The notes beneath the pieces are model-generated. The model was not told the DNA's origin. It made no database searches and saw nothing but the letters and a program-made list of their open reading frames with translations. From Tolypothrix carrinoi HA7290-LM1 (GTDB lineage: Bacteria; Cyanobacteriota; Cyanobacteriia; Cyanobacteriales; Nostocaceae), in assembly GCA_019358935.1 (NCBI GenBank), contig JAHHIK010000004.1:1-64000 (forward strand): a DNA stretch of 64,000 nt. Reading direction: 5' to 3'. Position 1 is the stretch's first letter. The number at the start of each line of letters is the position of its first letter. Positions 14,600-39,041 of this stretch are shown here, piece after piece. A program made the translations under genes and the position numbers.

Positions 14600-14958
14600 G
14601 TGACGACGACTTTATATAGGTGAAGTACCCCAACTTGCTTGGCTGAAGTTGGGGCTTCCAAATCCAGCTAACAAGGACGGTTTTATTCGTCCTTCGGGTT
14701 TCCCGTCTCATCCGCCGAAGCCTCCTCAAACTCGTGTTTGATTTGGTCTTACACAGCGTCCACAGGCAGACACCCGCCAACCGAGCGGTGTATAACTTTA
14801 CGTACAACACGGCGTGGCTTTTCTTTTACCGCAGAGCTAACCCGTGCGAACCAGTGGTCGTGTTCTTTCCCTGTATCTAGTCATGTTTCTTCGGCAAGTA
14901 TCGTAACACTACTTTGAAGTTAGCCTTTATGTTCCATACAGTCAGGAGGGTCGCAACC
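14600..14958 (-). ncRNA. Putative standalone TnpB-type omegaRNA/reRNA with 5' extension
   Basis: Non-coding and hairpin-rich (AAGGACG..CGTCCTT; terminal RE stem); candidate extended -10 TGcTACCAT at 14973-14965; boundaries inferred. Confidence 0.5.
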
Positions 14959-15228
14959 ATATTTATGGTAGCATGGTTGTAGAACAATGGGGTAACAATA
15001 TGAAAGAGAAAGTATTGAGATTCCGAATGCATGAACGTAGATACAATAAGCTCAAACTATATGCTGAAGTGAAGCAAAAAACGATGACGCAACTAATAGA
15101 GGATTGGGTTGACAGGTTACCAAATCCAGAAATTGGCAACACCTCGGACACCCAAAAAGGGTGTACCTCGTAGTTGCCCGCCGTGATGCACCCCACCGTA
15201 AGACGGATGGGGAATTCCGGCGAATTAG
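14620..15228 (-). mobile_element. Non-autonomous IS200/IS605-family derivative lacking tnpA and tnpB (element 1)
   Basis: Minus strand ends GAAGCCCCAACTT...AAGTTGGGGTACTTCAC (RE-type hairpin). The other end reads TTTAA|CTAATTCGCCGGAATTCCCCATCCGTCTTACGGTGGGG (LE-type hairpin). An internal GCCTGTGGA motif is typical of tnpB 3' ends. Confidence 0.72.
15000..15173 (+). CDS. Small ribbon-helix-helix-like protein inside element 1
   Basis: MKEKVLRFRMHERRYNKLKLYAEVKQKTMTQLIEDWVDRL: alternating beta strand followed by two amphipathic helices. Confidence 0.65.
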   Translation: MKEKVLRFRMHERRYNKLKLYAEVKQKTMTQLIEDWVDRLPNPEIGNTSDTQKGCTS

Positions 15229-15274
15229 TTAAAAGCTCCCAAGTCTTTGCTGACTGTGGGAGCTAAAAATTTTA

Positions 15275-15458
15275 AGTTCACCGCGACGCCGTTTTACCTA
15301 AGTTTATGACCTGGGTTTATCCAGGTGGGAACCTAATTCCTCGTTTAAAGTTTCCGAGTCGTTGCTCGGTTTACTGCCACGAGAACAGTTGACTCCCTTT
15401 TCTTTAAAGGCATAGATCAAAAAACTTGATGGCAGTCACCAACGTCGTAGTGCAACTT
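15275..15458 (-). ncRNA. ssrS: 6S RNA (6Sa)
   Basis: About 185 nt with complementary ends (AGTTGCACTACGACGTT / GGCGTCGCGGTGAACT), a TATAAT box at 15469-15464, and the known cyanobacterial position downstream of purK. Confidence 0.88.
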
Positions 15459-15621
15459 CACCCATTATAACTATCAAAAAGATATTGTGTGTCTTATGTG
15501 GAAAATAAACCCTCACCCTAGAAGGGTGGGGCTATACATACGAAGCCCACGAAGGTGGGCTAAATAAAAAATAGGGTTTTTAGGCTGCGTAGGCAGCCTT
15601 CGTTCGTATAGCCATAGGCTT

Positions 15622-16788
15622 CTAGCCTATGGGTGTTATGGGTGTGGGGGTATTCGGATACCAGATAGATTCTATGCTGCGGGCGACATCCATCGCCTGA
15701 TTTTGATTATCGAGCAAAACGGTGACGTGTCCTAATTTGCGCCCCAAACGCGATTCAGTTTTACCATACCAGTGCAGGTGGGCTTGGGGAATCTGCTGTA
15801 AGAGCGATCGCTTTTCTCGGTAGTCGAAGAGAGAATTTTCATATCCCAAAAGGTTAACCATGACAGCACCAGCGCAACGCAAAGCGGGATTACCCAAAGT
15901 CAAACCACACACCGCTCTTAAATGTTGCTCAAACTGCGAGGTTTCGCAAGCATCAAGGGAAAAATGCCCGGAATTGTGCGTTCTTGGGGCAATTTCATTT
16001 ACCAGCACTTTTCCATCTGCGGTGAGAAATAGCTCAATCCCAAAAACGCCTACTACTTGCAGGCTATTTAATATAGTGTGAGCGATCGCTTCTATTTCTG
16101 CTGCTTGTTGAGGTGTAATCTGTGCCGGCGCAATTACCCGACGACATACTTGTTCTTCTTGCTGAGTTTCCACCACCGGATAGGTTACAACCTTGCCATC
16201 AACTGAACGCGCCGCAATTATCGCTAGCTCTCGTTGAAAAGGAATAAATTCTTCTATCAAAAATGCACTTTCTGTGATATTATAATCTAGCTGGTGCTGT
16301 AATGTCGCAAAATCCTTGATAATGAAAGTACCTTGACCATCATAACCGTGACGTCGGGATTTGAGAACTAAGGGAAAACCCAACTTAGATGCGATTTTTT
16401 CGTTGTCTTGAGGCTCGACGGCGAAAAATTCCGGGACAGGTAAACCCAAGTCGCGTAAATAGCAGCGTTGATGATATTTATCTAAAAGCGGAGTTAAAGC
16501 TTCTAACCTAGGACGGAAGCAAACGCCTTGCTGTTTCAGGATGGATAAACCGTCTAGGTTAACAAATTCGTTTTCAAAGGTGATGACATCGCATAAGCTT
16601 GCTAAAACAGCGGTGGCTGTGGCATCGTCAATTTTAGCTAAAACTGTATCAGCTGCGATCGCAAAAGCCGGATCTTGTTTGCTAGGAGTTTGCACCACCA
16701 ATTCTAATCCTAGCTTTTGTGCGGCATCTCCCATCATCCAGGCGAGTTGTCCACCACCAATTACACCAACACGCTTCAAAGTTGACAT
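15622..16788 (-). CDS. purK: N5-carboxyaminoimidazole ribonucleotide synthase
   Basis: IGGGQLA, ITFENE, GYDGQG, NEIAPRTHNSGH, RKLGHVT. Confidence 0.96.
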   Translation of the reverse strand: MSTLKRVGVIGGGQLAWMMGDAAQKLGLELVVQTPSKQDPAFAIAADTVLAKIDDATATAVLASLCDVITFENEFVNLDGLSILKQQGVCFRPRLEALTPLLDKYHQRCYLRDLGLPVPEFFAVEPQDNEKIASKLGFPLVLKSRRHGYDGQGTFIIKDFATLQHQLDYNITESAFLIEEFIPFQRELAIIAARSVDGKVVTYPVVETQQEEQVCRRVIAPAQITPQQAAEIEAIAHTILNSLQVVGVFGIELFLTADGKVLVNEIAPRTHNSGHFSLDACETSQFEQHLRAVCGLTLGNPALRCAGAVMVNLLGYENSLFDYREKRSLLQQIPQAHLHWYGKTESRLGRKLGHVTVLLDNQNQAMDVARSIESIWYPNTPTPITPIG

Positions 16789-17270
16789 CCTAAAGAATCA
16801 CGAGTTTCTACACCAGTTTGAGAATTTACACCGCTGGCTTTTGCACACAGTTCTTTGATTTGCACTTTATCCAAAATCGCATCGCTGAAATCTGCACCTT
16901 TGATATCTACATTAGTAAAGACAGCGCCAAGCAAAAGAGCTTCTGTTAAATTGGCATCGCTCAAATCAGCCCCTGTTAAGTTTACCTGATCCACGAGTGC
17001 ATTGCTTAAGTCTGCTTGATGCAGATTCGCTTGTGTCATCGTGCTTGCACTCATGACTGCCCCTCGCAAGTCAGCACCAGCAAAGTTAGTTAGTTCCATA
17101 TTGGCGTTAGAAAATTCAGCTGCTTGCAAACTTTGCCCAGAAAAATCCCGTTTTGTCAATTGTGCATTGCTAAATGACAATGGATGAGTCCAGTCTGCGA
17201 TCGCTGGTGTTGTCCAGCCAAAGCAAAATACAATCATTAAGATAATTAACGCCAATTGCCGCCAAAACAT
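16776..17270 (-). CDS. Pentapeptide repeat protein (secreted/lumenal)
   Basis: Signal peptide, A(D/N)LXX repeats, C-terminal LC..ASGVN..TGV.TRDSLGC. Confidence 0.92.
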   Translation of the reverse strand: MFWRQLALIILMIVFCFGWTTPAIADWTHPLSFSNAQLTKRDFSGQSLQAAEFSNANMELTNFAGADLRGAVMSASTMTQANLHQADLSNALVDQVNLTGADLSDANLTEALLLGAVFTNVDIKGADFSDAILDKVQIKELCAKASGVNSQTGVETRDSLGCQL

Positions 17271-17941
17271 ATTCGCTTGCTGGTTGTGTGTTCAATCGCA
17301 GATTGTGCGGGTTCAAGTTTTAGCTTACCGCAAGTCCCTGTCTTTTATTCGTTAACTTCTAGCTTTTGGCGGTGATAAAGGCAACTTGTAACAGTTTGTT
17401 AAGGTTGATAGCGGGGAATATGACGTGCGATGGCGCTTTGCGCCCGCCATCAACGCGATCGCACTTATGAAAGAGCGAAAGTTCTTACTTAATACTGATG
17501 ATAAATATTGTTCATCTGCGGCACAATTAGACAAGCGCAAGCTTTTACACAGCAACTTGTTTGAGAGCATAACAAAGGTAAGCACTCACTAAATTATTTA
17601 CAATTCTTTATTTACAGATATCCGAACAAAGCTGATTATTGAGTTTTCGCAAGTCAAGTTATATATTATGGAATGAAAGCAACTACTCACTGATTTATTT
17701 ACAATTGTTTATTAAGTAAAGTTTATTATCTTTTAACGCCAAGAGGCGATGAGTTACTGTTAGTCTTGTAAGAATGACAAGCATGATTTTAACGTTATAT
17801 AAGAAATGTTTCACATGCTTAAACATTGCTTAACCATTAAAGGACAATCGTTAACTAACAGTGCGATTGGTGGGCAGAGCAGAAATCAAGTAACTAATAT
17901 TTAACTTCTACAGAAATTTCCACTCGTCAAGATTCCCGACT

Positions 17942-18268
17942 TTGATTATGAAACATTACTCAATTGAATGGATCGAAGAATGGTGCCAAGAAAATGGCTG
18001 GACAGATTTATTTGTTGAGCGTCGTAACAACTATTGGGCTTTTCCGCCAATGGCAGTAATGCCCGAACCAATCCCTCCCAAAGTTTTGAACGTGATTAAA
18101 GCGAAAAAGGGATTAACTGCTGAGGAAAGATGGTTGTCGATTTCAGCAGTAGTGACAACAATTGCCGCTGTAGTTTCTAGCTATTTGTTAAAATGTCCAA
18201 TGCCATTAGTTTTGGCTTTTGCTTTTGATGCCGTGACGATGGCTCAACTTGAAATTGAAGATATTTAG
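17942..18268 (+). CDS. Hypothetical membrane protein
   Basis: Plausible ORF with WC..NGWTD and WAFPP.AVMP.P motifs and a C-terminal hydrophobic hairpin. Confidence 0.65.
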   Translation: MIMKHYSIEWIEEWCQENGWTDLFVERRNNYWAFPPMAVMPEPIPPKVLNVIKAKKGLTAEERWLSISAVVTTIAAVVSSYLLKCPMPLVLAFAFDAVTMAQLEIEDI

Positions 18269-18347
18269 ACTTGAAGTAGTAAGCAAAGCTGAAAAGCGAA
18301 AAAGAGCGAAACAATTATTCGCTCTTTTTTCATGTTTAACGTAATAG

Positions 18348-18584
18348 ATGAAAGTCCGTGAAATTATTAAACTAATAGAAGCAGATGGCTGGTATCTTGC
18401 TAGAACTAGGGGAAGTCATCGACAGTATAAGCATCCAACAAAAGCAGGTTTGGTAACAGTTGTAGGCAAATTATCTGATGATTTAGCACCTGGGACGTTA
18501 AACAGTATTTTTAAACAAGCGCAACTAATACAACACAAAGAAAAAGAAGATATAGAAGACAGTGAAGAGAAGGAAGAAGACTAA
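18348..18584 (+). CDS. hicA: HicA-family toxin
   Basis: MKVREIIKLIEADGW...RGSHRQYKHP...GTL.SI.KQA. Confidence 0.92.
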   Translation: MKVREIIKLIEADGWYLARTRGSHRQYKHPTKAGLVTVVGKLSDDLAPGTLNSIFKQAQLIQHKEKEDIEDSEEKEED

Positions 18585-18793
18585 TGCTTTATGCAGTTGT
18601 GATTGAAAAAGCTAAGAGTAATTATTCAGCTTACGTTCCCGATTTGCCGGGATGTGTGGCAACAGGTGCAACTATTGTAGAAACACAGCAACAAATACAA
18701 GAAGCGATCGCTTTTCATTTACAAGGTTTGAAGGAGGAGAATTTACCTATTCCGGAACCAACAACTTTATGTGAATATGTGGAAGCATCATGA
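18584..18793 (+). CDS. hicB: HicB-family antitoxin (short, no DNA-binding domain)
   Basis: YSAYVPDLPGCVATG.T..E....I.EAI..HL; stop/start overlap with hicA. Confidence 0.92.
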   Translation: MLYAVVIEKAKSNYSAYVPDLPGCVATGATIVETQQQIQEAIAFHLQGLKEENLPIPEPTTLCEYVEAS

Positions 18794-18879
18794 AGATGTT
18801 TTTACAGAAAGCCTCAAGGTTCATCACCCGTTTGCCAAAAGCATCATTGATTTGGGAATAAGTGATTCGACAAATAAAA

Positions 18880-18951
18880 TGGGCAATACTGGATTTGAAA
18901 CTGTTACCCCATCCGTGTGAAGGATGTGCGCTACCCCTGTGCTAATCGCCC
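18880..18951 (-). tRNA. tRNA-Val(CAC) with degenerate T-stem (possible pseudo-tRNA)
   Basis: GGGCGATTAGCACAGGGGTAGCGCACATCCTT-CAC-ACGGATGGGGTAACAGTTTCAAATCCAGTATTGCCCA; acceptor and anticodon stems pair, T-stem ACAGT/CCAGT has two mismatches. Confidence 0.78.
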
Positions 18952-19051
18952 AAGCAAGATTTATTATTTTAACATATTTAGAGCGCAAATAGCAACTTTT
19001 AACAGGGGAAGCGACGGTAGTGAAGAAAGCTTCCCCTTGCCTTAGTTGGTT

Positions 19052-19348
19052 TTAAAACCTGTCGTAGGGAGAGAATATAGTGTAGTAGAGCGAAGGATCA
19101 ACCCGATCTGTGAAGCGAGAATAGAACTGGTGCATCCTAATTGGATCTGGTTCGTGTTGCTCTTGTTGAGAATTTTCTGATGTTTCTGGCTTGCTGGCTA
19201 GGGTAGCATCAATCAAATCAACCAACTTCGACCATGCGACGGAAAAGGGATTTTGGAAAGAACTTGGAGGCAAGGATTTCTTTTCATTTTCAGATAATCT
19301 TGCTTTGTTTAAATCATCAACCAGCAAATCATTCATATTCTTAGACAT
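19052..19348 (-). CDS. Hypothetical protein
   Basis: 98-aa ORF with AAGGAG upstream; no recognised motif. Confidence 0.55.
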   Translation of the reverse strand: MSKNMNDLLVDDLNKARLSENEKKSLPPSSFQNPFSVAWSKLVDLIDATLASKPETSENSQQEQHEPDPIRMHQFYSRFTDRVDPSLYYTIFSPYDRF

Positions 19349-19746
19349 GTTTTTTCTCCTTTGAGATGTTGAGTTTGCGTGCAGTTTTTTGCATTTCGTT
19401 AGGAACTGTATTCTTTAGACATAGGAGTGTCCTGCGTCGTAGGGACAATTCATGAATTGTCCCTACACTCGTACCGGAAGGGCAACGCATAATTGTTTTC
19501 CACTCCGTTTGTCTTTTGGGAAGATTCCGCAAAGCTAACTAAATGCATTCTTATACAGATATAGAAATAAATCAAATCAAGTTATGCACTTTAAGGATAA
19601 AAATAGTAACGATTGATTACAGATGCAAAAATAAACGATAAAAGCATAATATTTTATGCATGTACAAGAATCTGTAGCTCACAAGATTCCCGACTTCTTC
19701 AAATCGGGAATCTGAAACTATCGACTATATCTTGGGCGATCGCATC

Positions 19747-20478
19747 TCAATCACCCTGCGGATAGTCCTCCCACAAAGCTGTAATTTCTCGCAGACTTTG
19801 GTGATTGCCATCGCCTAATATGAGATGATCTAACAGCGGAATGCCTAAAAACTGCGCTCCGGCTAATAATTGGCGTGTCAAGTCGATATCAGCCTGACTG
19901 GGTTCAACGTTACCAGAAGGATGATTGTGCGCGACTATCACCCGCGTTGCTCCATGACGAATAACTTCGCGAAAAATCTCGCGGGGAGGTGCTAAAGTTT
20001 CTGTGGCAGTACCGATGGTAATAACTTGCGTTCCCAGTAAACAATTCTTAACATCTAATAAAAGTACTGCAAAACGTTCTTGAGTTTGCCACATTAAATC
20101 TTGACTCAAAGCTGCCGCCGCCGCAACTGGACTATCAATTGGTGTACGGTCTAAAGGGCGAGATTGAAAAGCTCGTTTACCTAGTTCAACTGCTGCTAAA
20201 ATGGTAGTCGCCTTGGCAGGACCAATACCAGGTATTTGCATTAACTCAGCGGGGGTAACTTCTCGCAATACAGCTAAAGGGTCGCGATCGCATTTTGCCA
20301 ATTCATGTAGAATATATTGCCCCAAACCAATCGCTGATAATTTTCCCTGTCCTTGACCAGTGCCTAGTAAAATTGCGATTAACTCCGCTGTGGCTAAAAT
20401 TTTCGCTCCATGTGTCATTAACCGTTCTCGCGGACGTTCACTGGTTGGTATATCGGCAACTCTGAGGCAGTAGGTCAT
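19747..20478 (-). CDS. radC: RadC/JAB-domain protein
   Basis: ERPRERL, HhH GIGPAKA, HNHPSG...PS.AD, LLDHLI; ATG at 20478 is the likely start. Confidence 0.93.
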
Positions 20479-20619
20479 ATTGAGAATATACTGGAGATAG
20501 ATGAACCTATCTCTAGTTATCTCTTGTTTATTCTCCAAACCATTGTGATTTGACAAAATCTTTAATTTTGGTCAATTTTCTCTGGTTATCGAAATATTAG
20601 CTTCATATAGAAGCTAAGA

Positions 20620-21561: not shown

Positions 21562-21858
21562 ACCCCCAAAGTCAAAAATGTTTTGTATGTTATTTTACTT
21601 ATTTTAGAAAGTAATCATATCTAATTTCAGATAAAAATGTCTCTTAACAATCAAAATACTCACGTATTTCTGACGAAATTACATACAATCAATGCTTTTT
21701 TGCCATACGCAATTTTTTTGTATCGATTTATAAACGGTTTGTTACTAAATTTAATTTTGTAATAATAAAGGTAGATGCAAGATTCTTACATCTACCTTTA
21801 TAATGATTTGCCTGATGCCCATAAACCCGGTTTCGCAGGAGTTACCGGGTTTCTAAAG

Positions 21859-22149
21859 TTAGCGCGGACAAGAAGGTAAAGACTTATTAGCGTAATTACA
21901 ATCGAAATAATCTAGAGCATCACGACTAGATTCAAAACTATGGGTAATATATGAAGGTGCGCTATTTGTAGATGAATCGCGATTCCAGATTTTTAAGAAA
22001 TATTCGGTGTTATCAGTGCTGCGCCAAAGTTGATATTTATAATTGCCACCACCACCATTACTAATTAATGAATCAGCCATTGCTATAGTTGATGTAGTTA
22101 GCATTGTGGCTGTAGTTAAAAGGAAAAGAATACTCTTTTTAAATAACAT
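21859..22149 (-). CDS. Small secreted hypothetical protein
   Basis: Signal peptide ending AMA, two C-terminal Cys. Confidence 0.65.
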   Translation of the reverse strand: MLFKKSILFLLTTATMLTTSTIAMADSLISNGGGGNYKYQLWRSTDNTEYFLKIWNRDSSTNSAPSYITHSFESSRDALDYFDCNYANKSLPSCPR

Positions 22150-22311
22150 TTTTTTGATTCCTAAAGATTACATTACTTTTATATCCTTAAGAAACAGTTA
22201 AAAAAGTAAGTTAAATTAAATAAATCATCAATATATGATGAATGTAAAAGTCTACTTTTGAGACAAAGTAAGAGTTGTTACGGAAAATATTACAGCTTTT
22301 ATGTAAAGCTA

Positions 22312-22444: not shown

Positions 22445-22451
22445 GAAGATA

Positions 22452-27724: not shown

Positions 27725-30700
27725 ATGACGCGAGAATCAGCTTCAACTTATGAATATCAAGTTGGGGGTAGTTTACCAATTGAGTCTCTCACCTACGTCC
27801 GACGACAAGCTGATGAAGACCTCTACAAGTACTTGAAAGCGGGAGAGTTTTGTTATGTCCTCAACTCCCGGCAAATGGGCAAATCTAGTTTGCGCGTGCA
27901 AGTAATGCAGCAGTTGCAACAAGAAGAAATTGCTTGTGCAGTAATTGATATTACCTCAATTGGGACGGCAGATATTACACCCGAACAGTGGTATGCTGGC
28001 GTAATAGATACATTAATTGGCAGCTTCAATCTTTACACCACTTTTGATTTAGATACATGGTGGACTGATAATCATTTATTATCACCAGTTCAAAAGTTGA
28101 ATAATTTTCTTGATAAAGTACTGCTGGAATTAGTTGTTACAAATATTGTTATTTTTATTGACGAAATTGATAGTATTCTCAGCCTTGGATTTAATCCTGA
28201 TGATTTTTTTGCGGTAATCCGCGACTGCTACAACCGTCGAGCAGACAACCCCGCTTATCGTCGTCTTACTTTTGCAATATTGGGAGTGTCTACACCTTCA
28301 GATTTAATTCAAGATAAGAGACGGACACCTTTTAATATTGGTAGAGCAATTGAATTAACTGGTTTCCAGCTTGAGGAAGCGCAACCGTTAGCACGGGGAT
28401 TAGTGACGGTAGGAAATCCGCAAACATTGATGGAAGCAGTGCTGTACTGGACAGGAGGACAGCCGTTTTTGACACAAAAAGTTTGTAAGTTACTGAAGAC
28501 TGGGAAATACGAATTGCTGATTGCTGATTTAGTCAGAAAGCGCATTATTGAAAATTGGGAAACGCAGGATGAACCAGAGCATTTGAAAACAATTATAAAT
28601 AGGATACTTTATAGTAGTGAACAGCGTAGCGGTAGGTTGTTAGGATTGTGTCAGCAAATTTTGCAGCAAGAAGAAATAATAGCCGATGACAGTGCCGAAC
28701 AAACTGAACTGCGGTTGACAGGATTGGTAGTGAAGCGCGATGGTAAACTGCGATTTTATAACCGCATATATAAGGAAGTATTTAATCAAGAATGGTGCGA
28801 TCGCCAACTTGCCAAACTGCGTCCTTATGCTCAATTACTCAATGCGTGGATAGCCTCACAGCGTCAGGATGAGTCACGCTTATTGCGGGGACAAGCGCTA
28901 CAAGATGCTCAAGCTTGGGTAGCAATGCAAAGTTTAACAGATTTGGATTATCAGTTTTTAGCCGCTAGCCAAGAGGTAGAACAGCGCGATATTCGGCAAC
29001 GATTAGAGGCTGAAGCAGTAACTGCAAAAGCAGAATTTGAAGTAGCAAGAACTAGAGAAAAGATTAAAGTTCAAAAGCAAATAACTCGACTAGCGATCGC
29101 ATCTTTTATCTGTATCACGGGATTCGCAATCTTTGCAGGAGTTAAATGGAGACAAGCAGATGAAGGTCAGATTCTACCACTAACAATATCCTCAAACACA
29201 AAATTCCAATTAAATCGAAGTTCGTTTGATGCCTTAATAGATGCTCTCAGAGCCGGAAAACGCCTAAAGCGCTCTATTTGGTATAGAAACGACCCAAAGC
29301 TAAAGGCTGAACTAATGGAAGCGTTTAATGCAGCTTACTGGGTTAGAGAAAGCAATATTTTACAAAAACACCAAGGCTTTGTTCAGAAGGTTAGATTTAG
29401 CCCTGATGGTAAAACAATTGCCACTGCAAGTTTCGATAATACTGCAAAACTTTGGAGTGCAGATGGCAGGGAACTCTTAACCTTGAACGGACACACTCAA
29501 GCAGTTGTAGATGTCAGTTTCAGTCCCGACGGTCAAACGATCGCTACCGCTAGTCGGGATGGAACTGTAAAATTTTGGAATCGTCAAGGAAAGCTTCTAA
29601 AAACTTTAAATGCACATAAAAATTCAGTCGTCTGGAGTGTTAGTTTTAGTCCCGACGGTAAGAAAATTGCCACCGCTAGTGAAGATAATACAGTAAAACT
29701 TTGGACATCGGATGGTCGTCTTTTGAAGACTTTAACAGATCATAAAAATGAAGTCTACAGCGTCAGCTTTAGTCCCGATGGAAAGACAATTGCTACCGCT
29801 AGTGCCGATGAAACAGTGAAACTTTGGGATATTGAAGGTAAATTGCTGCATACTTTTACAGGGCATAAATATTGGGTATCTAGTGCGCTTTTTAGTCCTG
29901 ATGGTCAAATTATCGCTTCTGCCAGTGCTGACAAAACTGTTATTCTTTGGGATGTAAACAAGAAAACCAAACTATTAACTATAATCGGGCATAAAAAGAC
30001 AGTGATAGATGTTGTTTTCAGCCCTAATAGTCAGAATATTGCGACTGCGAGTGCCGATAAAACAGTAAAAGTCTGGCAGCGACGAAATGGTGTACTTTTA
30101 CAAACTTTGGAAGGACATCAAGATGAAGTTAGTAGTGTTAGTTTTAACCCTCAAGGAAACATACTTGCATCTGCTAGCAACGACAACACGGTTAAACTTT
30201 GGCAAGTGAATGATTGGCTGACAAGTTTTACTGGACATGATGACTCAATCTACAGTGTTGATATCAGCCGCAAAGGTAATATTATTGCAACTGCTAGTGG
30301 TGATGCGACTGTAAAACTTTGGAACTTGCAAGGACAAGAACTCAAAACACTCGTAGGACATAGTGATACTGTAGCTAGTGCTACTTTCAGCCCAGATGGT
30401 AAGATGATTGCAACTGGTAGTAACGATAAAACTATTAGGCTGTGGAACTTGCAGGGACAGTTAATCAAAACACTCGCAGAACATATTGATAGTATTACTA
30501 GCGTTAGTTTTAGCCCGGATGGTAACACAATTGCCAGTAGCAGTCTGGACGGAACTGTGAAACTTTGGAATCGAGAAGGAAAACTTTTAAACACTCTCAA
30601 AGGAAATATTACAAGAATTTCTAACGTCAGTTTTAGTCCAGATGGCAACATTATTGCTTCTCCTGGTAGGGATGGAAAAGTACAACTTTGGAACCTGAAT

Positions 30701-31177
30701 GGAACTCCTTTACGTAGCTGGAAGGCACATGATGCGTCAGTCTATAAAATTCGTTTTAGCCCTGATAACCAAGTCATTGCTACTTCTAGTCAAGATAGTA
30801 CTGTGAAGTTGTGGAGTTTGGATGGTCGTCCTTTAAAGACATTAACGGGTCACACTGCTGGTATTTCCGGCTTAGATTTTAGTCCAGACGGTCAAATGAT
30901 TGCTACAGCTAGTGATGACCGCACAGTCAAAATTTGGAGTCGTCAAGGAGTGTTAATTACTACTTTATTTGGACATTATAATGCTGTTAATTCAGTCAAA
31001 TTCAGCCCCGATAGCAAAAGCCTTCTTACTGGTAGTTCAGATAAAACGGTGCTGAGATGGAATATCGATAAATTAACACTTGAAAAGTTTTTAGACAGAG
31101 GATGCTATTGGTTAAGTGAATATATCAAAACCAATAATAAAGCTCCCACTGATATTTGCGACGAAAATAAAAGGTAA
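27725..31177 (+). CDS. AAA_35 (STAND-like) NTPase - TM - WD40 repeat protein
   Basis: YQVGGSL, Walker A SRQMGKSS, Walker [18 protein letters not shown], a hydrophobic segment, about 14 WD40 repeats (SFSPDG..IATAS.D.TVKLW). Confidence 0.92.
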
Positions 31178-31253
31178 TTTCAACCTGAAGTTATCTTTTT
31201 GATAAAATTTCTAGGCAACAAGCAACTTATACAATTCATTAGGAAGTGCAGTC

Positions 31254-33752
31254 ATGGAAAACAAAGCAAAAGAACAAAATCAAAAAAACGATTGGAATAA
31301 AAAAGGACTTGGTTGGGTTCCCGACTATCCAGACCTGCGTGACTACGATTTAACTGATGAAGAAGTTAAAAATAAGTTGAGGTTAAAAACAGACGAAAAA
31401 ACTGATAACATTGAACAGCTTCTTAACTTAATAATTGCAAATTTAAGTGAAGAAACTAGAGAGACAAGTCCGATAGATGAAATAAAAAATAAAATTTTAG
31501 GGAGTGTTGTATTTACAAAGGTAAAAGTTCACAAAGTCTTTAGAGATGAAGTATCAGAAAAGTATAGTAAATATATTATTAATAAAATAAATTATGAAAG
31601 TATACTTTCAAAGCAGATACTTGAATTGAAAAAATGCCTTGTTCTTTTAGTTTTGAACAAATATTTACTAGGTGTTGAGCAATTATCTGAGCAACCAAAA
31701 GAAGATGATTTTGTTAATTTTGACGATCCAGCAGAAGTTGTCGCATGGATGAAAAAAGATAAATATGATAAAACTACTCAAGTGCTTGTGAAGCTATTTC
31801 AACGTGGTTCCCTCATTAACGATGCAGATGGAATAGTTAGACTTGAAACTTACACCAATTTGAATGAATATTTTTCTAACTCTAAAAAATTGTTAAGCCT
31901 GAAAAAACGTAAAAATCACGAATTGAAAAAGCAAAAATTAACATCAGAAAGTAGATTTTTTTCTGTTACTTCGCTAATACCAACTGTAGCATTTAAGAAA
32001 ATACTGGATATTTTGAAATTGAAAGCTGTCGAACAAATCTTAAAAGAAATTCAAGAATTGCCAAGGCAAGAAAATAATCATTTATTAGATTTTGAGGAAA
32101 ATTTTCTCACTAACATTAAAGTTCAAACAGATTTTTTTGAAAAATTCTTTAAAAAAATACCTAATGATATTGGACGAGAGGATATCAAAGATGACAAAAA
32201 GTTAAAAAATAAAGTCAATGAGTTGTTGATTGAATATCAGAAAAGAAATAACCATTGTGTACTTCAAGATAGTGATATTTTAGAAGTATTACAAAATTCA
32301 TATTTATTTGAACCAATAGTTTCAGCTATTACTTATAGCCTTTCTCCTTTAGCTCAATGGAGAAATCAGAGTTTTGAAGATCTTCTAGAAATGGGTTTTG
32401 AGAAATTTGAAGAAATTTCTCAAGAAACATCTTCTGAAACCAAAACTAATTTAGGATATTCTCAGAAAGAATTAGCTAAAGAAGCGATTATTAAAGTTGT
32501 ATGTCTTCTGAAGGTTGAAATACGTTCGCTTGTAGAAAAAGAAAAAAAACTCAATGAAGACGAACAGAATGCTCAAAGTACCGAAGAAAAAAAGAAATTT
32601 ATCAGTACTGTTTTGTTCTGTTTCTTGTTAAAAAAATATCTGAATCGTTTTACAGATTGTATTATAGATCCCGAAAAGGCAGCTATTGATGAAATTAAGC
32701 CTAACATTTGTGATAAACAAGAAGTATTTGAAATTGAAAACTTAGTTGATGATAAAAATGAGGATAGTACTCAACAAAAAACAGAAAAATTAGAGCTTTT
32801 CCCAACTTTACAATTATACATTCCTTTAGTAAGCAACAGTCTAATTAAAGAGTTAAAAAGACGTAATAAAGAGGGAAGTTCAAGTGAAAAGATATTCTTT
32901 CTTCTTCCTGGTATAGTAGATTTAAGCTTTTGGTGTTCTCCAGTCAGAGATCAGGGGTCACTGAACTCTTGTACTGCCTTTGCTGCGATCGCTTTGTTAG
33001 AGTATTTTGCTAATAGAAATTATCAACAGAAAATAAATCCTTCTGCTTTGTTTCTCTATAAAGCTGCACGCCAAAAAATGAATGTTACAGGAGACGTGGG
33101 AGCATCTATAAGAGAAACAATCAAAGTACTAGCGCTATTTGGTGTTCCCCCGGAAGATTCCTGGAGTTACGATGAAGATAAAGTAGACGAAGAACCACCT
33201 CCCTATTGCTACGCTTATGCTCAAAATTATAAAACACTGAAATACTTTCTTTTAGATTATGCAGGCATTTCTAAAGAAAGCCTTCTGTTTCAAATTAAAG
33301 CAGTTCTAGCCGCAGGTTTTCCTTGTATTTTTGGGTTCACACTTTATGCTTCTGCATACGAAGATTCAAACGAACCAGGTCATATTCCCTATCCAGATCA
33401 AAAGAATGATAAAGTTGTCGGTGGGCACACCGCTGTAGTAGTTGGATATGATGATTACAAATTCATGTTGTGTGCCGATCGCAAGCACTATTCCCAAGGT
33501 GCATTCTTAATCAGAAACTCTTGGGGACCTGAATGGGGAGTCAATGGTTATGGCTGGCTTCCCTATGACTACGTGTTAGCTGGACTTACTGCCGCTTGGT
33601 GGTCGCTGCTGAAGTCAGAATGGTTTAATGAAGATAACTTCGGTTTGGCAGGAACAGGTGGGGAAGAACCACATAGGGAGACAAAAGGCTCAAATCAGCC
33701 TCCCAAAAAGCCTCCCAAAAAGCCTCCCAAAAAGCCTCCTCACAACCTCTAA
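31254..33752 (+). CDS. C1A papain-like cysteine protease with a long internal insertion
   Basis: N-terminal GLGWVPDYPDLRD; catalytic motifs DQGSLNSCTAF, GGHTAVVVGY and IRNSWG; C-terminal (PPKK)3. Confidence 0.88.
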   Translation: MENKAKEQNQKNDWNKKGLGWVPDYPDLRDYDLTDEEVKNKLRLKTDEKTDNIEQLLNLIIANLSEETRETSPIDEIKNKILGSVVFTKVKVHKVFRDEVSEKYSKYIINKINYESILSKQILELKKCLVLLVLNKYLLGVEQLSEQPKEDDFVNFDDPAEVVAWMKKDKYDKTTQVLVKLFQRGSLINDADGIVRLETYTNLNEYFSNSKKLLSLKKRKNHELKKQKLTSESRFFSVTSLIPTVAFKKILDILKLKAVEQILKEIQELPRQENNHLLDFEENFLTNIKVQTDFFEKFFKKIPNDIGREDIKDDKKLKNKVNELLIEYQKRNNHCVLQDSDILEVLQNSYLFEPIVSAITYSLSPLAQWRNQSFEDLLEMGFEKFEEISQETSSETKTNLGYSQKELAKEAIIKVVCLLKVEIRSLVEKEKKLNEDEQNAQSTEEKKKFISTVLFCFLLKKYLNRFTDCIIDPEKAAIDEIKPNICDKQEVFEIENLVDDKNEDSTQQKTEKLELFPTLQLYIPLVSNSLIKELKRRNKEGSSSEKIFFLLPGIVDLSFWCSPVRDQGSLNSCTAFAAIALLEYFANRNYQQKINPSALFLYKAARQKMNVTGDVGASIRETIKVLALFGVPPEDSWSYDEDKVDEEPPPYCYAYAQNYKTLKYFLLDYAGISKESLLFQIKAVLAAGFPCIFGFTLYASAYEDSNEPGHIPYPDQKNDKVVGGHTAVVVGYDDYKFMLCADRKHYSQGAFLIRNSWGPEWGVNGYGWLPYDYVLAGLTAAWWSLLKSEWFNEDNFGLAGTGGEEPHRETKGSNQPPKKPPKKPPKKPPHNL

Positions 33753-33835
33753 TATTAATAGTTAATAAAGCAAACAGCGCTAACCAAAAGGAATGCGCTG
33801 TTCTCTGCAATTTGGCTATTAACCAAAATTAAAAA

Positions 33836-33908
<73 letters not shown>

Positions 33909-34024
33909 GTTTTGACTCACATTTATAAACTATAGCAAAGTATTCCAAATCGCGCTACTATTTTTGAGAAATATTTTGCCGATCGCTTAATCCAAAATCC
34001 ACGCATCCAAAATCCAAAATCCCT

Positions 34025-34639
34025 ATGCCCTCTGGACGGACGCACGATCGCATTACTTTATGGGCTTTACCTTTTGTTGTGGCGATCGCCTTCTGGCAAA
34101 CTCGCAACGGCAACTTGACTTTATTGGTTGCTGGTGGGTTTATGTTCGGTGGGTTGATGTTCGGTCCCGATTTAGATATTTACTCGCGTCAATTTCAGCG
34201 CTGGGGTTGGTTGCGCTGGATTTGGCTACCTTATCAAAAACGTTTGCGTCATCGTTCTTTTTTCTCTCACGGTCCGATAATTGGGACAACGCTACGGGTG
34301 CTTTATCTGACTAGCTTGCTAGCAATTTTGTCAATTTTCGGTTTGGTGGTTGGTGCAAAGCTGGGAAATGTAACTTTGAATTGGCAGGATATAAGTGAAA
34401 ATGTAGGGCGATCGCTCTCTTCTTACTCTAGCGAATTATTAGCACTATTTTTGGGGTTAGAACTCGGTGCTATGAGTCATTCTCTCAGCGATTGGGGCGG
34501 TTCGGCTTACAAGCGTTTCCAAAAGCAAGGGGTTCAAGGATTGCTGCCGCGTGCGAAAATGAAGAAACGTAAAGTGAGTCGCGGTAAGCGTCGGGTGACG
34601 GTAGCGAAGCCAAGGGGGAAAAGTCAAAAGCGACAATAG
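34025..34639 (+). CDS. DUF2227-family putative metal-binding membrane protein
   Basis: MPSGRTHD, GPDLD, HRS..SHGP..GT..R..Y, SH..SD. Confidence 0.85.
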   Translation: MPSGRTHDRITLWALPFVVAIAFWQTRNGNLTLLVAGGFMFGGLMFGPDLDIYSRQFQRWGWLRWIWLPYQKRLRHRSFFSHGPIIGTTLRVLYLTSLLAILSIFGLVVGAKLGNVTLNWQDISENVGRSLSSYSSELLALFLGLELGAMSHSLSDWGGSAYKRFQKQGVQGLLPRAKMKKRKVSRGKRRVTVAKPRGKSQKRQ

Positions 34640-34697
34640 TTAGTTTTGAAACGCAGAGGGACGCTAAGGAAAACGCAGAGGGACGCTGAGTTTATTT

Positions 34698-35525
34698 ATG
34701 GAATTGAATCAAAATCAAAGGAATGCTGAGACGTTGACAGCGTTACAAGAATTAATTGATGTGGTGGCAAAGTTGCGTAATCCTGATGGTGGTTGTCCGT
34801 GGGATTTGGCGCAAACTCCGCAAACGCTGACACCATATGTGATAGAAGAAGCTTATGAAGTGGTGGACGCAATTAAAAGTGGGGATAAAGAGGCGATCGC
34901 TGAAGAACTGGGAGATTTACTTTTACAGGTAGTACTGCAAGCGCAAATCGCTAGCGAATATCAACAATTTTCCCTCAAAGAAGTCGCTCAAGGCATTTCC
35001 CAAAAGTTGATTCGTCGTCATCCCCATGTATTTGGTGATGTGTCGGTGGAAAGTGTTGATGAGGTGCGGCAAAATTGGGAACAAATCAAAGCTGAAGAAA
35101 AAGGCGAAACTCCAGATAATAAAAAACTTAGTGCTAAACTCAGTCGTTATGCTAAGACTCTTCCTCCGATGATAGCGGCAATGAAAATTTCCCAAAAAGC
35201 GGCTGCGGCTGGGTTTGAGTGGGAAAATATTGATGGTGTCTGGGCAAAGTTTCATGAGGAGTTGGCGGAATTTGAACAAGCTTTAGAACAAGAAACACCA
35301 GCAGAACAACAAGCGGAATTAGGCGATTTACTATTTTCGATTATTCAAGTTGCCCGATGGTATAATCTTGACCCGTCAGAAGCTTTGCAAGGTACAAATC
35401 AGCGATTTATTCAACGGTTACAAAAAATGGAGGCGTTTGCTAACCGCCCCCTTTCCGATTACACTTTGGATGAGTTAGAAGCACTTTGGCAACAAGCTAA
35501 AGCTAAACTTGCACAAGAGTCATAA
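34698..35525 (+). CDS. mazG: Nucleoside triphosphate pyrophosphohydrolase
   Basis: GCPWD..QT, EEAYE, EELGDLL, KLIRRHPHVF, second ELGDLL domain. Confidence 0.95.
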   Translation: MELNQNQRNAETLTALQELIDVVAKLRNPDGGCPWDLAQTPQTLTPYVIEEAYEVVDAIKSGDKEAIAEELGDLLLQVVLQAQIASEYQQFSLKEVAQGISQKLIRRHPHVFGDVSVESVDEVRQNWEQIKAEEKGETPDNKKLSAKLSRYAKTLPPMIAAMKISQKAAAAGFEWENIDGVWAKFHEELAEFEQALEQETPAEQQAELGDLLFSIIQVARWYNLDPSEALQGTNQRFIQRLQKMEAFANRPLSDYTLDELEALWQQAKAKLAQES

Positions 35526-36998
35526 TTACAATTTCACCGTGACGGTTTTGATTTCGGTGTAATGCTCTAAACAATACTCGCCGAGTTCGCGACCCATACC
35601 GGATTGTTTAAATCCGCCGAAGGGTGCAGCAGCGTCAAACACATGGTAGCAATTCACCCAAACAGTACCGGCGCGGACGTTATTAGCGATCGCCAAAGCC
35701 TTGGTAATGTCCTTTGTCCACACCCCGGCAGCAAGACCGTACATTGTAGTGTTAGCTAAATGAATTACCTCGTCGATGTCCTTGAACTTAATAATGCTCA
35801 TCACTGGACCGAAGATTTCTTCTTGGGCAATCTTCATGTCGTTGCGAACATCTGCAAAAACAGTCGGCTGAATGAAGTAACCGCGATCGCCAACTTGATT
35901 ACCACCACATAACATCTGGGCACCTTCTCGCATACCCGACTCAATGTAGCTCATCACCTTGTCGAACTGGTCTTTATCTACCTGCGGTCCTTGCTGAGTA
36001 TTACTATCAAAGGGGTTGCCAACGACACGTTGCTTGGCTCTTTCCACACTCTTAGCAACGAACTCGTCGTAACATTTTTCTTCCACAAACAACCGCGAAC
36101 CGGCATTGCAACACTGACCTTGGTTGAAGAATAAGGCGTTGTGGGCACCTTGAATCGCTTCATCCATATCAGCATCGGCAAAGACGATATTGGGACTCTT
36201 ACCACCAAGTTCTAGAGTTACCCGTTTCAGGTTGCTCTTTGCAGCAGCCTCCATTATCAAGTGTCCTACTTCAGTAGAACCAGTGAATGCTACTTTGTCA
36301 ATATCCATGTGGTGGGAAATTGCCGCTCCTGCTGTTGGACCATATCCTGATAAAATATTGACCACACCAGGGGGGAAACCAGCTTCGATAATTAACTCAC
36401 CTACTCGCAACGCAGACAACGGTGTTTGTTCGGCTGTTTTCATCACCACAGTATTGCCCGTTGCCAAAGCAGGTCCGAGTTTCCACGCTTGCATCAGTAG
36501 CGGGAAATTCCAAGGAATAATCTGACCAACCACACCAACAGGCTCATGACGTGTGTAGCAGAAGTACGGACCATTAATTGGGATGGTCTTACCTTGCACC
36601 TTGTCAGCCCAACCTGCATAATAGCGGTAACAAGCGATGACCAGCCGTAAGTCAGCATTTAAAGAATCACTCAGCGGTTTGCCGTTATCGAGAGTTTCCA
36701 ACCGTGCCAACTCGTCGATATTCTGCTCAATTAAATCAGCCAGCTTGTAAAGTAACTCTCCGCGACGGGTGGCGGACATTTTTGACCATTCCCCACTGGT
36801 GAAAGCATTACGAGCTGCTTGCACTGCCTTATCTACATCCGGTGCATCTGCTTCTGCAACTTCGCAGATAGTCTCGCCGGTAGCAGGGTTAATCGTTTCA
36901 AATCGGCGATCGCTAACACTATTCACCCACTCATTGTTAATCAGCAGTTGCGTGGGACCAATTTTGACCTGTTTTTCTGGTACGCTAGCTATAACCAT
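35526..36998 (-). CDS. NAD-dependent aldehyde dehydrogenase
   Basis: [36 protein letters not shown]. Confidence 0.95.
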
Positions 36999-37179
36999 CA
37001 GGTTCTCCTTAAGCTTTGATAAAAAAATTTGCTTAAATCTATTAATTATGTTTGTTCATATACAGCACATTTTGTAATTTCTTTATGTAATTTTTCGATT
37101 TGATTTACATAAAAATATATAAAAAAACTTTAACTGTAGTAAGCGGCTTTAGCCCTTCTTTTTTAATCTTTAGATGATG

Positions 37180-37986
37180 CTACAACAATCGTGCCGCTGC
37201 CTCATAAAGCTTTTGGTTACAGTTAGTAATAATTGGGCTACCATGAGCAACACAAATTACGTGTAAGTCAGACGTATTGGCGGCTAATTCTTCAAGCCAT
37301 TGACGATAAGCTTGGCGATCGCTCATAAAAAACCGCTTACCTAACTCGGTAATTCCGAAGAACCCACCGCTTCCTATCCACTGAAGGATGAGCTTACCTT
37401 TGGGTGCGTACTGCTGAAGATAGGATTCTGTCAAGTTAAACAAGATGTCTGTAAACACCAACGCTTTGCCCGGTGATAATGGTAATTCGTAAACAAGCTC
37501 TTGCGGACGAATTCCGGCAGGTTGATGGCAGACAATTCCATAGTTAGGTAGAACTTCTTCGGCAAGTCCATCAACTGACACAACTTCTTCAACATATGGC
37601 AATGCTGCGGATGGACAAACAACCAAGAGTTTTGGGTAACGCTGTTTATACACAGCTGCATCCAAGCGATGAATTCGATTAGGCACAACCATGACTTTTG
37701 GAGTTCCGAGAGATTCAAGAGTTGTCATTGTCTCGGAGTCTAAAGCGATCGCGCTATGAATCAGCAAGTCACCATCTGCAAGCTTAAAGATCGCCATTTC
37801 CCGTGGTGGAAGCATCGGATTAGGCAGCGTGCCTGTTACATGCCATAGATTCGGGGCTAAATTTTCAATATTACTATGCGGCAATACATAAGATTGCCAA
37901 TTCTCAACAGGTTTTTGACGATGTTTGACTAGAGAGTTTAGGTAATAAAAGACTTCAGTAGGAGAGCCTTTCCTTCTCGGCTCCAT
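37180..37986 (-). CDS. Hypothetical protein, DUF4336/metallo-beta-lactamase-like fold
   Basis: LLIHSAI, VVPNRIHRLD, VFTDILFN, VAHG. Confidence 0.6.
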   Translation of the reverse strand: MEPRRKGSPTEVFYYLNSLVKHRQKPVENWQSYVLPHSNIENLAPNLWHVTGTLPNPMLPPREMAIFKLADGDLLIHSAIALDSETMTTLESLGTPKVMVVPNRIHRLDAAVYKQRYPKLLVVCPSAALPYVEEVVSVDGLAEEVLPNYGIVCHQPAGIRPQELVYELPLSPGKALVFTDILFNLTESYLQQYAPKGKLILQWIGSGGFFGITELGKRFFMSDRQAYRQWLEELAANTSDLHVICVAHGSPIITNCNQKLYEAAARLL

Positions 37987-38010
37987 AGGTACACCTCATC
38001 CTGCTTTGCT

Positions 38011-38505
38011 AAGAGAGTATTGCATAGATTTTGACACTCCCCGACTATCGCGGTACGGGGATTCTTGGTTCATCCAGCAAGCCGTAAACCTTCATATCCC
38101 TATTCCCAATCGCCGATTGGTACACGGGCAATACCTAACCAAACATCTGCTACTATTGTACAAAATGTCGAGCCAGTTTATGAAAGACCTAGAGGGCATC
38201 TGTCCACGCCAGTCGCTTCAAGTCGGGAAACCCGCCCAACGCGCTGGCTCCCAAGCTTTCGGGTACTTTGCCGAGAGTGCCTTAAAAGCGTGTTCCTCTG
38301 TTTTCCCCACATTCCGGCGTGCCCCGCCGTATGTTGTTAATTAAGTTGTTTCTTTTCTAGGTTCACGCGCAATCTGTTAGATAACGACTAGGTTTTTAAA
38401 GAGGATTTTCCTTACCCTCTTAGCATTACTACTTCCTAGCCAGTCGAGTGGAGACACCCCAGATTTGTATAGTCTCGTGCTAGCGGTTTTTCAGCCTGTG
38501 CTATA
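38011..38505 (-). ncRNA. Putative standalone, expanded TnpB-type omegaRNA/reRNA
   Basis: Non-coding tract between a near-consensus promoter and the RE hairpin; boundaries inferred. Confidence 0.5.
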
Positions 38506-38510
38506 TTATT

Positions 38511-38540
38511 AGTATAGGTTACGGTTCACTCTTATGTCAA
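38511..38540 (-). promoter_or_regulatory. Sigma70-type promoter TTGACA-N18-TATACT
   Basis: -35 at 38540-38535 overlaps the start codon of the divergent RHH gene; -10 at 38516-38511. Confidence 0.65.
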
Positions 38541-38731
38541 CGGGAAAAGGCAAAAAAAGAGTTCGGAATATTCCGGTATTGCATGACGAACCGAAGAAGA
38601 AACGCGGCGTATGGTTGACAGACACCGCGTGGCATTCAATACAGGAATTAGCTATAAAAGAAGGGGTTAGCGCTAGCGAGTATTTAGAAGAGTTAATTAG
38701 AGGGCATTGCACCACAAAGCGGAAAGTTTGA
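38534..38731 (+). CDS. CopG-like ribbon-helix-helix protein inside element 2
   Basis: KKKRGVWLTDTAW..IQELA..EGVSASEYLEELIR; last codons come from an inserted dispersed repeat. Confidence 0.75.
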   Translation: MSTGKGKKRVRNIPVLHDEPKKKRGVWLTDTAWHSIQELAIKEGVSASEYLEELIRGHCTTKRKV

Positions 38732-39041
38732 GCGGAGGTTCCCTCCGATCAAACATGAGTCAAGACGGCGTAAACGCAAAGTCTGCCGGACAGAAGCTTC
38801 TGTCCGGCGAGCTTTGCGCCTTTAACCGTTTTCATCCCTTGCTATCGCGTACAGATGTGGCACTATGACGTGCCACATCTTCAAGGGTTTTCAACGAGTA
38901 TTCTTATAAACAAGATTTACGCAAGAATTTTATCCGCTTTAACCCACACAATAAAAGGAGGCAGTACCCGCTACTCACTACCTCCTTTGTAATTACAGCT
39001 TGGATAAATTAGAAATGCTCTGACAGCAAGCTAAAATTTAG

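Follow-up and report, generated by a model that had tools for sequence, protein, structure and literature searches.

Two families of tnpB-less IS200/IS605-type elements with a conserved, base-paired RNA leader in Tolypothrix carrinoi HA7290-LM1 and other cyanobacteria

What maintains a mobile element that encodes neither a transposase nor a nuclease? The question is raised by two short elements, here named E1 and E2, in the first 64,000 nucleotides of contig JAHHIK010000004.1 (C4:1-64000 of the 7.96-Mb draft genome of Tolypothrix carrinoi HA7290-LM1), a stretch hereafter called the window. A preliminary description made from the sequence had proposed that both represent a recurring class of guide-RNA cassettes rather than random decay. 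The answer that we regard as probable is that a conserved, base-paired 5' leader of about 150 nt has replaced tnpB in E1 and E2, both of them non-autonomous IS200/IS605 elements, and that they are likely to specify standalone guide RNAs (omegaRNAs) served by TnpB and TnpA in trans. The conserved structured leader, which stands where tnpB was, had been missed in that description.

On the minus strand both elements have the same order of parts, namely, a transposon-adjacent motif (TAM), a left-end (LE) hairpin, an open reading frame (ORF) on the opposite strand for a ribbon-helix-helix (RHH) protein, a promoter, a non-coding tract and a right-end (RE) hairpin. The positions and the order of parts given in the preliminary description were borne out by the sequence and by empty alleles in congeners. 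The features are as follows.

14620-15228, minus strand: E1, non-autonomous IS200/IS605-type element of the TTTAA/TTCAC class; empty alleles in congeners G025 and G691
15229-15233, minus strand: E1 TAM, TTTAA, just 3' of the hairpin behind the 6S RNA gene
15165-15228, minus strand: E1 left end with subterminal hairpin (DNA fold; common to relatives)
15000-15173, plus strand: E1 RHH ORF, Arc/CopG/ParG-like, 57 aa (family profile, model and ratio of nonsynonymous to synonymous substitution, dN/dS)
14959-14999: E1 divergent promoter and operator spacer, with an extended -10 site TG-n-TACCAT (14973-14965) for the RNA and short repeats, seen by eye, that are the likely RHH operator
14800-14958, minus strand: E1 structured 5' leader with a 5' hairpin, a multi-helix junction and a second domain (covariation; leader covariance model (CM), 117 bits; without Rfam match)
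14620-14799, minus strand: E1 omegaRNA scaffold of the TnpB type, with RE hairpin, TTCAC end and an additional hairpin at 14692-14675 (nhmmer and covariation; pseudoknot partner motif kept)
14604-14619, minus strand: E1 predicted guide, the host flank past the RE, equal to what follows the TAM where the site is empty (role proposed from TnpB biology)
38031-38905, minus strand: E2, non-autonomous IS200/IS605-type element of the TTTAT/TCAA class; empty allele in G025
38906-38910, minus strand: E2 TAM, TTTAT
38830-38905, minus strand: E2 left-end hairpin (DNA fold), of the LE type found in host tnpB element C92 and tnpA-tnpB element C133
38715-38829: short high-copy palindromic repeats between the E2 LE and the RHH stop codon (many genomic matches; outside the family consensus)
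38534-38731, plus strand: E2 RHH ORF, 65 aa (Pfam RHH_1, E=0.006, below the cut-off; model and dN/dS)
38511-38540, minus strand: E2 sigma70-type promoter, TTGACA-18-TATACT, with the -35 box overlapping the RHH start codon
38355-38504, minus strand: E2 5' leader with a predicted H-type pseudoknot (about 38422-38388), unrelated to the E1 leader (pair counts; without Rfam match)
38031-38331, minus strand: E2 expanded TnpB-type omegaRNA scaffold with structured inserts, RE hairpin and TCAA end (nhmmer and covariation)
38204-38250: 47-nt high-copy genomic repeat inside the E2 RNA, absent from relatives
38015-38030, minus strand: E2 predicted guide, the host flank past the RE (putative role)

The non-coding tract measures 339 nt in E1 (14958-14620) and about 474 nt in E2 (about 38504-38031, including the 47-nt repeat), and together with RHH-like ORFs of 57 and 65 aa this agrees with the sizes first reported (340-480 nt and 57-65 aa). 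As had also been noted, the two elements share little sequence (cross nhmmer best E 0.68) and have different ends, and neither encodes TnpA or TnpB. A TnpB hidden Markov model (HMM) run against the six-frame translations of the tracts gave a best E of 3.3, and a coding origin of the tracts was therefore rejected.

The neighbours of E1 are an M16 peptidase gene and the 6S RNA/purK locus, the element standing directly behind the 3' hairpin of the 6S RNA gene (15274-15456; Rfam, 104 bits; downstream of purK), while E2 lies between a gene without Pfam match and an M48 peptidase gene. In the empty alleles of both elements, the TAM is directly joined to the RE flank. The flanks of these alleles are 96-98% identical to the window, which together with the exact empty alleles indicates that the insertions are recent and the ends exact. 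Over its first 15 nt, the E2 flank past the RE shows one difference from what follows the TAM at the empty site, and none of 10 congeners showed E1 sequence at the E1 locus. Subterminal LE and RE hairpins, a 5' TAM, a fixed RE end and the absence of target duplication place both elements among the non-autonomous IS200/IS605 elements similar to palindrome-associated transposable elements (PATEs). Other insertions or length changes occur at the spot after 6S RNA in three congeners.

A profile search found five full E1-type and three full E2-type copies in the host genome. Among the loci fetched for inspection, which were picked as best hits, mostly with 1.5 kb on either side, and are not a census, there were 73 distinct full-length E1-type and 26 E2-type RNAs at unrelated positions. 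A TnpB match was present at one of the 73 E1-type loci (L008/L063), where it is part of another element, nested upstream of the promoter; none of the 26 E2-type loci had one, and no relative carries tnpB inside its own RNA unit. Close relatives occur in Nostoc, Calothrix and Moorena records. A DNA search with E1 found matches in 67 of 151 genomes of the family, many of them partial only, and one with E2 matched 135 of 151, mostly via the genomic repeats embedded in it; about a dozen of the matches were long. A loose pattern run over the genome collection gave mostly chance matches outside cyanobacteria, and 8 of the 80 matches listed passed a filter on start, core and RE. No plasmid matched the cassettes; viral contigs gave one exact E1 motif match, confirmed by neither profile nor CM, and no E2 motif; 8 of 15 motif matches in a metagenome scan were full-length by profile. 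In genome G721, 11 cassettes match the 3' query, and four that were compared are 95-98% identical with unrelated flanks. E1 and E2 are thus recurring mobile families and not one-off deletions, and their recent insertions and multi-copy spread fit mobilisation in trans.

Three further copies deserve mention. At G000:C57:35750-36455 (L085) a third cassette combines an RHH gene, a divergent tract and a TCAA end with a 5' part that matches neither leader, and it is possibly another leader type or a decayed copy. L241 (G372:C12) is a case of nesting, in which an E2-type cassette interrupts the leader of one of E1 type. The 137-bp mini-element at G000:C87:36184-36320 joins the RE part of the C77 cassette to an LE tip, i.e. 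it is a classical PATE made from a cassette.

The tract consists of two parts, the 5' leader and a 3' TnpB omegaRNA scaffold. No tnpB element matched the first ~150 profile positions (nhmmer), and Rfam had no match to either element at the gathering threshold; at E≤1 on 10 loci it returned one chance-level match, to HgcC, and at E≤0.5 on 12 loci none. Base pairing was assessed by a structure-blind covariation test in our own code, not R-scape, which combines a G-test, average product correction and a tree-based substitution shuffle; RNAs longer than 401 nt (E1) and 560 nt (E2) were excluded, and sets A2 and A3 comprised 30/58 and 22/25 sequences. Among the 14,706 pairs from 48 sequence-aligned E1 5' regions, the top six reached E≤0.05, all at least 92% Watson-Crick or G-U. 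Five of them fall in five leader helices (RNA positions 15-87, 24-74, 51-60, 95-153 and 111-129) and the sixth in the first scaffold hairpin. In E2 (25 sequences) the top four pairs, 100% canonical (all Watson-Crick) at E≤0.07, lie in the scaffold, an inserted domain and the RE hairpin. Leader structures were also drawn by hand from the same sequences on which they were then scored, so that the following paired counts are inflated: the 28-pair E1 structure (30 sequences) has 91.9% of cells paired, against 73.6% after shuffling and 30-39% with slid partners, and the 31-pair E2 structure, which includes the H-type pseudoknot, has 85.5% against 73.2%. Double-sided changes occur in 22 of the 28 E1 pairs, the compensatory changes including G-U pairs, and the E2 pseudoknot pair is GC in 17 sequences and AU in 5. 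RNAalifold on a mixed alignment recovered only part of the structure. Leader covariation is strong for E1 and moderate for E2.

The leaders are conserved beyond what their linked genes would predict. Identity to the window copies is 66-89% for E1 (8 pairs) and 70-90% for E2 (7 pairs), well above that of the linked RHH synonymous sites, which differ by ~0.8 (E1) and 0.65 (E2) per site and are near saturation. The E1-leader CM found matches in 12 of 151 genomes sampled across the class, from 11 families, including 12 copies in G721; no TnpB match was seen at the 22 more distant loci inspected. Wherever the 3' part was intact among these, the leader was followed by a TnpB scaffold, and the E1 leader is fused to two different omegaRNA and end types. 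At L333, L335, L337, L343, L345 and L238 it stands on a different scaffold with a TCAA-type end, and the alignment of that scaffold to the 3' end of host tnpB C110 sets in where RuvC-III coding stops. The E1-leader CM did not match the E2 RNAs, which indicates that two unrelated leaders occupy the same position. The leaders have few invariant nucleotides and large internal deletions in subfamilies; they contain loops that, read by eye, we take to be T-loop-like and GNRA-like.

The supposition that the E2 pseudoknot resembles those of small riboswitches, or those that block exonucleases, had no Rfam support. Two inserted modules of the E1-type RNAs, namely, two hairpins ahead of the pseudoknot partner and an extra hairpin ahead of the RE, tend to be mutually exclusive; a similar purine-rich loop is present in each. 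High-copy short palindromic repeats, represented in the window at 15480-15610, 14550-14610, 38204-38250 and 38715-38829, have repeatedly entered the loops of cassette RNAs in many genomes and left the core unbroken.

The 3' part ties the RNAs to TnpB. In E1 it matches the ends of the host tnpB-element sequences C95, C33 and C97, and in E2 the 3' ends of the host tnpB elements C110, C92 and C27 and an RE remnant in C1 (nhmmer); the scaffold of both elements is therefore homologous to TnpB omegaRNAs, and like them it ends at the RE. The partner of the RE-end pseudoknot lies 98-102 nt upstream in 11 of 19 E1-type copies without the extra hairpin. The host genome contains 51 TnpB-domain and seven Y1 TnpA (Y1_Tnp) matches. 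Intact TnpBs with the D-E-D catalytic residues are encoded by C92 and C110, both with the E2 scaffold and RE and C92 also with an E2-type LE, and in G721 the TAM, LE and RE of the cassettes recur in three intact tnpB elements (406 aa). The finding of tnpB elements with matching ends and scaffold in the same genomes favours the part of the earlier proposal that saw guide cassettes for a TnpB encoded elsewhere. The label 'nuclease-free' given at that time is correct as regards the DNA; a nuclease acting in trans is probably still used by the RNA. As for TnpA, C133 has an E2-type LE and C56 an RE hairpin like that of some E1-type copies; none of the seven Y1_Tnp matches showed an element with the exact E1 LE. 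The 12-mers past the RE, from which guides would be read, are highly variable (56 distinct among 57 E1-type and 23 among 25 E2-type copies), and no 10-nt TAM-plus-seed match of the window guides was found in the genome. The suggestion that the cassettes serve a domesticated TnpB-derived regulator is not supported by these data. G000 C24, C25, C34, C50, C70 and C125 hold several open frames of 200-256 aa with the TnpB zinc-finger domain and ends in TTTAC, possibly a class of short TnpB-like proteins, possibly genes with a frameshift.

Where the RNA is predicted to start, a TAnnnT box at a fixed distance is present in 50 of 58 E1-type relatives, 41 of them with a TG extension, as compared with 8 and 1 at a position shifted by 10 nt; for E2 the figures are 20/25 and 2/25 when shifted. 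In the E1-type RNAs a short hairpin follows the box directly and the 3' end is at TTCAC. The E2 promoter matches 11 of 12 sigma70 consensus positions, while a sigma70 scan found no site at the E1 promoter. No RNA run with the window's own sequence was found (best share 0.05). Four soil metatranscriptomes from two studies contain contigs related to the E1 tract, which is covered between 14618 and the 14918-14953 bin, and to 6S RNA; in the same runs, chosen without regard to E2, contigs of E2 relatives account for the tract between about 38030 and 38493 and take in the leader. The strand, ends and level of these contigs are not shown, DNA is a possible source and uncovered stretches prove nothing, so that they provide a weak hint, which concerns relatives only.

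Both small ORFs look like RHH proteins, with the strand-helix-helix domain of that class. The E1 family profile matches ParG (E=1.1e-4), 11 of 31 members match RHH_1 at E≤0.01, and the predicted models have the two helices and resemble mostly ParG, Arc, CopG and antitoxin RHH folds, none at E≤0.001; the E2 profile gave no RHH match against PDB. The genes are under purifying selection, with a dN/dS of 0.16 for E1 (35 unsaturated of 325 pairs, 26 sequences) and 0.10 for E2 (5 of 21 pairs, 7 sequences). The RHH gene had been described as part of the layout. Both window elements have it, but it is not obligatory: 32 of 58 E1-type RNAs are accompanied by one, from several subfamilies, and the Moorena copies lack it. 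The RHH start lies 37-43 nt from the RNA start in most E1-type copies. Members of the E1 and E2 RHH families also stand divergent to intact tnpB (C71, L027, L044 and L046, with C71, L044 and L046 of the E2 family), and part of the selection may therefore date from that context. The RHH gene is optional, exchangeable and inherited from RHH-tnpB elements, and the RNA is the defining part. Short direct and inverted repeats in the spacer, read by eye, change with the RHH subtype, which suggests that the protein represses the divergent promoters through operator repeats in an autoregulatory manner. An E2-type RHH is divergent to a TnpB-like ORF of about 480-510 aa at G000:C52:46300-48076, and E1-type RHHs flank 468- and 513-aa TnpB-like ORFs (L061, L062); the module thus pairs with several TnpB clades.

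According to the relevant sections of PMC10055086, TnpB uses the RE-derived omegaRNA to cut empty sites and so retains elements, and PATEs often encode omegaRNAs that need TnpB in trans; the review PMC10691335, in its part on standalone omegaRNAs, states that these function in trans and calls their role unknown. On this model, E1 and E2 would transcribe a standalone guide RNA composed of leader, omegaRNA scaffold and flank-derived guide, which a TnpB of matching type, supplied by another insertion sequence, would take up. The loaded TnpB would then cut empty copies of the element's own locus, favouring the element in cells with several chromosome copies, and TnpA in trans would likely move the elements. 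Cyanobacteria may be polyploid. An omegaRNA can be trimmed by TnpB from its own mRNA, as described in the portion of PMC10278001 on processing. Since a tnpB-free RNA could not be matured in this way in cis, the leader is proposed to protect and present the scaffold: it would shield the 5' end and keep the scaffold folded until TnpB is captured, which would trim the RNA. Given the rest of the model, we consider the chances of this role about even. A bolder version, which we regard as possible though doubtful, is that E1 and E2 belong to a cyanobacterial class of protein-free RNA transposons built on portable leaders of at least two unrelated folds, which replaced tnpB, were grafted on scaffolds of different TnpB clades and actively capture TnpB, or mature themselves for it, in trans; as hyperparasites, the elements would thereby have a homing advantage over the tnpB elements that they exploit.

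Several observations weigh against standalone guide RNAs. Transcription of E1 and E2 in this strain is predicted from sequence, and loading, cleavage and homing by TnpB would follow by analogy. The TnpB class closest to E1 is represented in the window assembly by broken genes (C84, C95) or ends at contig edges (C33, C97) only. Inserts in the scaffolds are not seen in tnpB elements, and direct alignments of E1 with C84 and E2 with C92 are short, so that TnpB loading could be altered. TnpB occurs in 30 of 30 cassette genomes, which is uninformative since TnpB is common and only cassette genomes were searched. No single E2 leader pair was significant in the blind test (E≥0.5), though the pairs are mostly canonical; module swapping breaks the tree assumption of the covariation null, in a code that is not R-scape; and single-sequence folding was no better than for shuffles (z -1.05 and -1.85). 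Finally, the region 5' of -116 in the ISDra2 omegaRNA is dispensable for cleavage, as given in the section of PMC10097598 on this RNA, which means that TnpB guiding alone does not explain the leader.

The RNA might instead bind TnpB as a decoy or modulator, the leader and inserts capturing the protein and blocking or redirecting cleavage to shield the element or the host from other TnpB guides. That the scaffold is kept yet expanded with conserved inserts, the strong promoter consensus of E2 and an RNA segment able to inhibit the TnpB ribonucleoprotein, reported in the relevant part of PMC10278001, would suit such a role, which we nevertheless consider unlikely, as the RE-end pseudoknot motif and the TAM and RE match to cognate tnpB are kept as for a working guide, and a pure decoy would presumably give a mobile copy no locus-specific benefit. 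A leader acting independently of TnpB, as a ribozyme, ligand sensor or site for another protein in RNA-only selfish elements, is a slightly poorer candidate. The multi-helix junctions, the presumed T-loop-like and GNRA-like loops and the predicted pseudoknot invite it, as do the portability across scaffolds, the persistence over 11 families and the two unrelated leaders in one position; Rfam, however, offered no ribozyme, intron or riboswitch match, the scarcity of invariant nucleotides and the large deletions do not resemble a fixed catalytic or ligand pocket, and a TnpB scaffold stands behind the leader wherever the 3' part is intact.

Ordinary decay, in which the elements are tnpB deletions similar to PATEs or miniature inverted-repeat transposable elements and the pairing reflects single-stranded DNA transposition or history without RNA function, is largely refuted and very improbable. 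The RHH gene and promoter do derive from RHH-tnpB elements, degenerate copies exist (the C87 mini-element, C86, C18) and the folding z-scores are not significant. On the other hand, the leader is not tnpB sequence, its compensatory changes include G-U pairs, the -10 box is fixed, its identity exceeds that of the linked synonymous sites and it lies far from the LE and RE hairpins used by TnpA. The preliminary description had named as marks of decay unique deletions, a lack of conserved RNA structure, neutral RHH evolution and a lack of transcript; the first is contradicted by the many relatives, the second by covariation and the third by a dN/dS far below 1, whereas for the fourth the RNA libraries hold relatives only, which is weak evidence. 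Least probable of all is domesticated host regulation, be it as guide for a nuclease-dead TnpB or as cis leader or mobile promoter for the downstream gene. Both window copies do face a host gene of the same direction, and no terminator is apparent in the sequence, but among the genes downstream at 100 loci 49 are co-directional and 40 opposite (11 without a long ORF), guides differ almost everywhere, the genome holds no 10-nt target and both insertions are missing in the closest congener. A cis-leader role was rejected for the lack of orientation bias at these loci, and a TldR-like guide system because a fixed locus, a conserved guide with a host target and a linked dead TnpB were not found.

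Non-autonomous IS200/IS605 elements, standalone omegaRNAs and Arc-like RHH genes beside TnpB are already known. As the relevant sections of PMC10691335 and PMC10055086 describe them, standalone omegaRNAs and PATE-like elements share with E1 and E2 the TnpA-type ends, the absence of tnpA and tnpB, the RE scaffold with flank guide and the reliance on proteins in trans. They are minimal in that description, whereas here a promoter, an optional RHH gene and the ~150-nt leader replace tnpB; unlike minimal PATEs, the families form old lineages with a leader shared between scaffold types. IS1341-group and IS605 tnpB elements with Arc-like RHH (10.1101/2023.11.20.567912, in the part dealing with them; host C71, L027, L044, L046) have the same module of LE, RHH and divergent promoter and the same RHH families; in E1 and E2 tnpB is absent, a leader RNA starts at the promoter and the RHH is optional. 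The ISDra2 omegaRNA has a similar 3' scaffold ending in the RE, and its pseudoknot partner at -103 to -105, in the structural part of PMC10097598, compares with 98-102 nt in the shortest E1-type copies. Its 5' part, as described there, overlaps tnpB coding sequence and is disordered and dispensable, while that of E1 and E2 is non-coding and covaries; their scaffolds also carry extra inserted helices.

IStrons, in which a group I intron is combined with an IS605 or IS607 element, likewise have an extra structured RNA fused to an omegaRNA inside an IS200/IS605 element, to judge from their treatment in 10.1101/2023.11.20.567912. The E1 and E2 RNAs start mid-element at their own promoter and could not splice out the whole element; the IStron or group I intron assignment was rejected for this internal promoter, the lack of a Rfam group I match and of orientation bias to flanking genes. 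HEARO, the IscB omegaRNA (RF02033; relevant section of PMC10055086), is also a long structured RNA of OMEGA type (from obligate mobile element-guided activity) in IS200/IS605 elements; it was rejected since RF02033 gave no match and the scaffold is TnpB-type, with a 3' guide, and matches tnpB ends. Known riboswitch and ribozyme families were set aside, as Rfam gave no match and no orientation bias resembling a 5' untranslated region was seen. The archaeal RHH/MazE-TnpB systems, in the account given in PMC10691335, also place an RHH beside TnpB-derived sequence, keep the TnpB protein and are immobile. From these, E1 and E2 differ in being mobile and protein-free and in having variable guides. 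The same distinguishes them from TldR, which uses a guide RNA, keeps the TnpB protein and is immobile. For the conserved leaders and their portability no description was found in the literature searched or in Rfam 15; supplementary RNA-motif catalogues could list them.

The families show that standalone-omegaRNA elements are not just debris but include old, still-spreading lineages equipped with a promoter-like site, conserved RNA domains that have no counterpart in Rfam and, optionally, a regulator. With the C92 and C110 TnpBs for E2 and the 406-aa TnpB of G721 for its 11 cassettes as defined partners, it becomes testable what standalone omegaRNAs do. Should the leader indeed stabilise or load the omegaRNA, it would be a natural part with which to improve TnpB editors that have their guide in trans. 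Structural studies could also take up the two large RNA folds.

Elsewhere in the window, a hicA-hicB-like toxin-antitoxin pair (18357-18793) adjoins a low-scoring tRNA-Val(CAC) at 18879-18952 (Rfam, 42 bits), which may be the degenerate tRNA of an integration site. Positions 27725-31177 encode a 1150-aa WD40-repeat protein, followed at 31254-33752 by an 832-aa protein with a papain-family peptidase domain.

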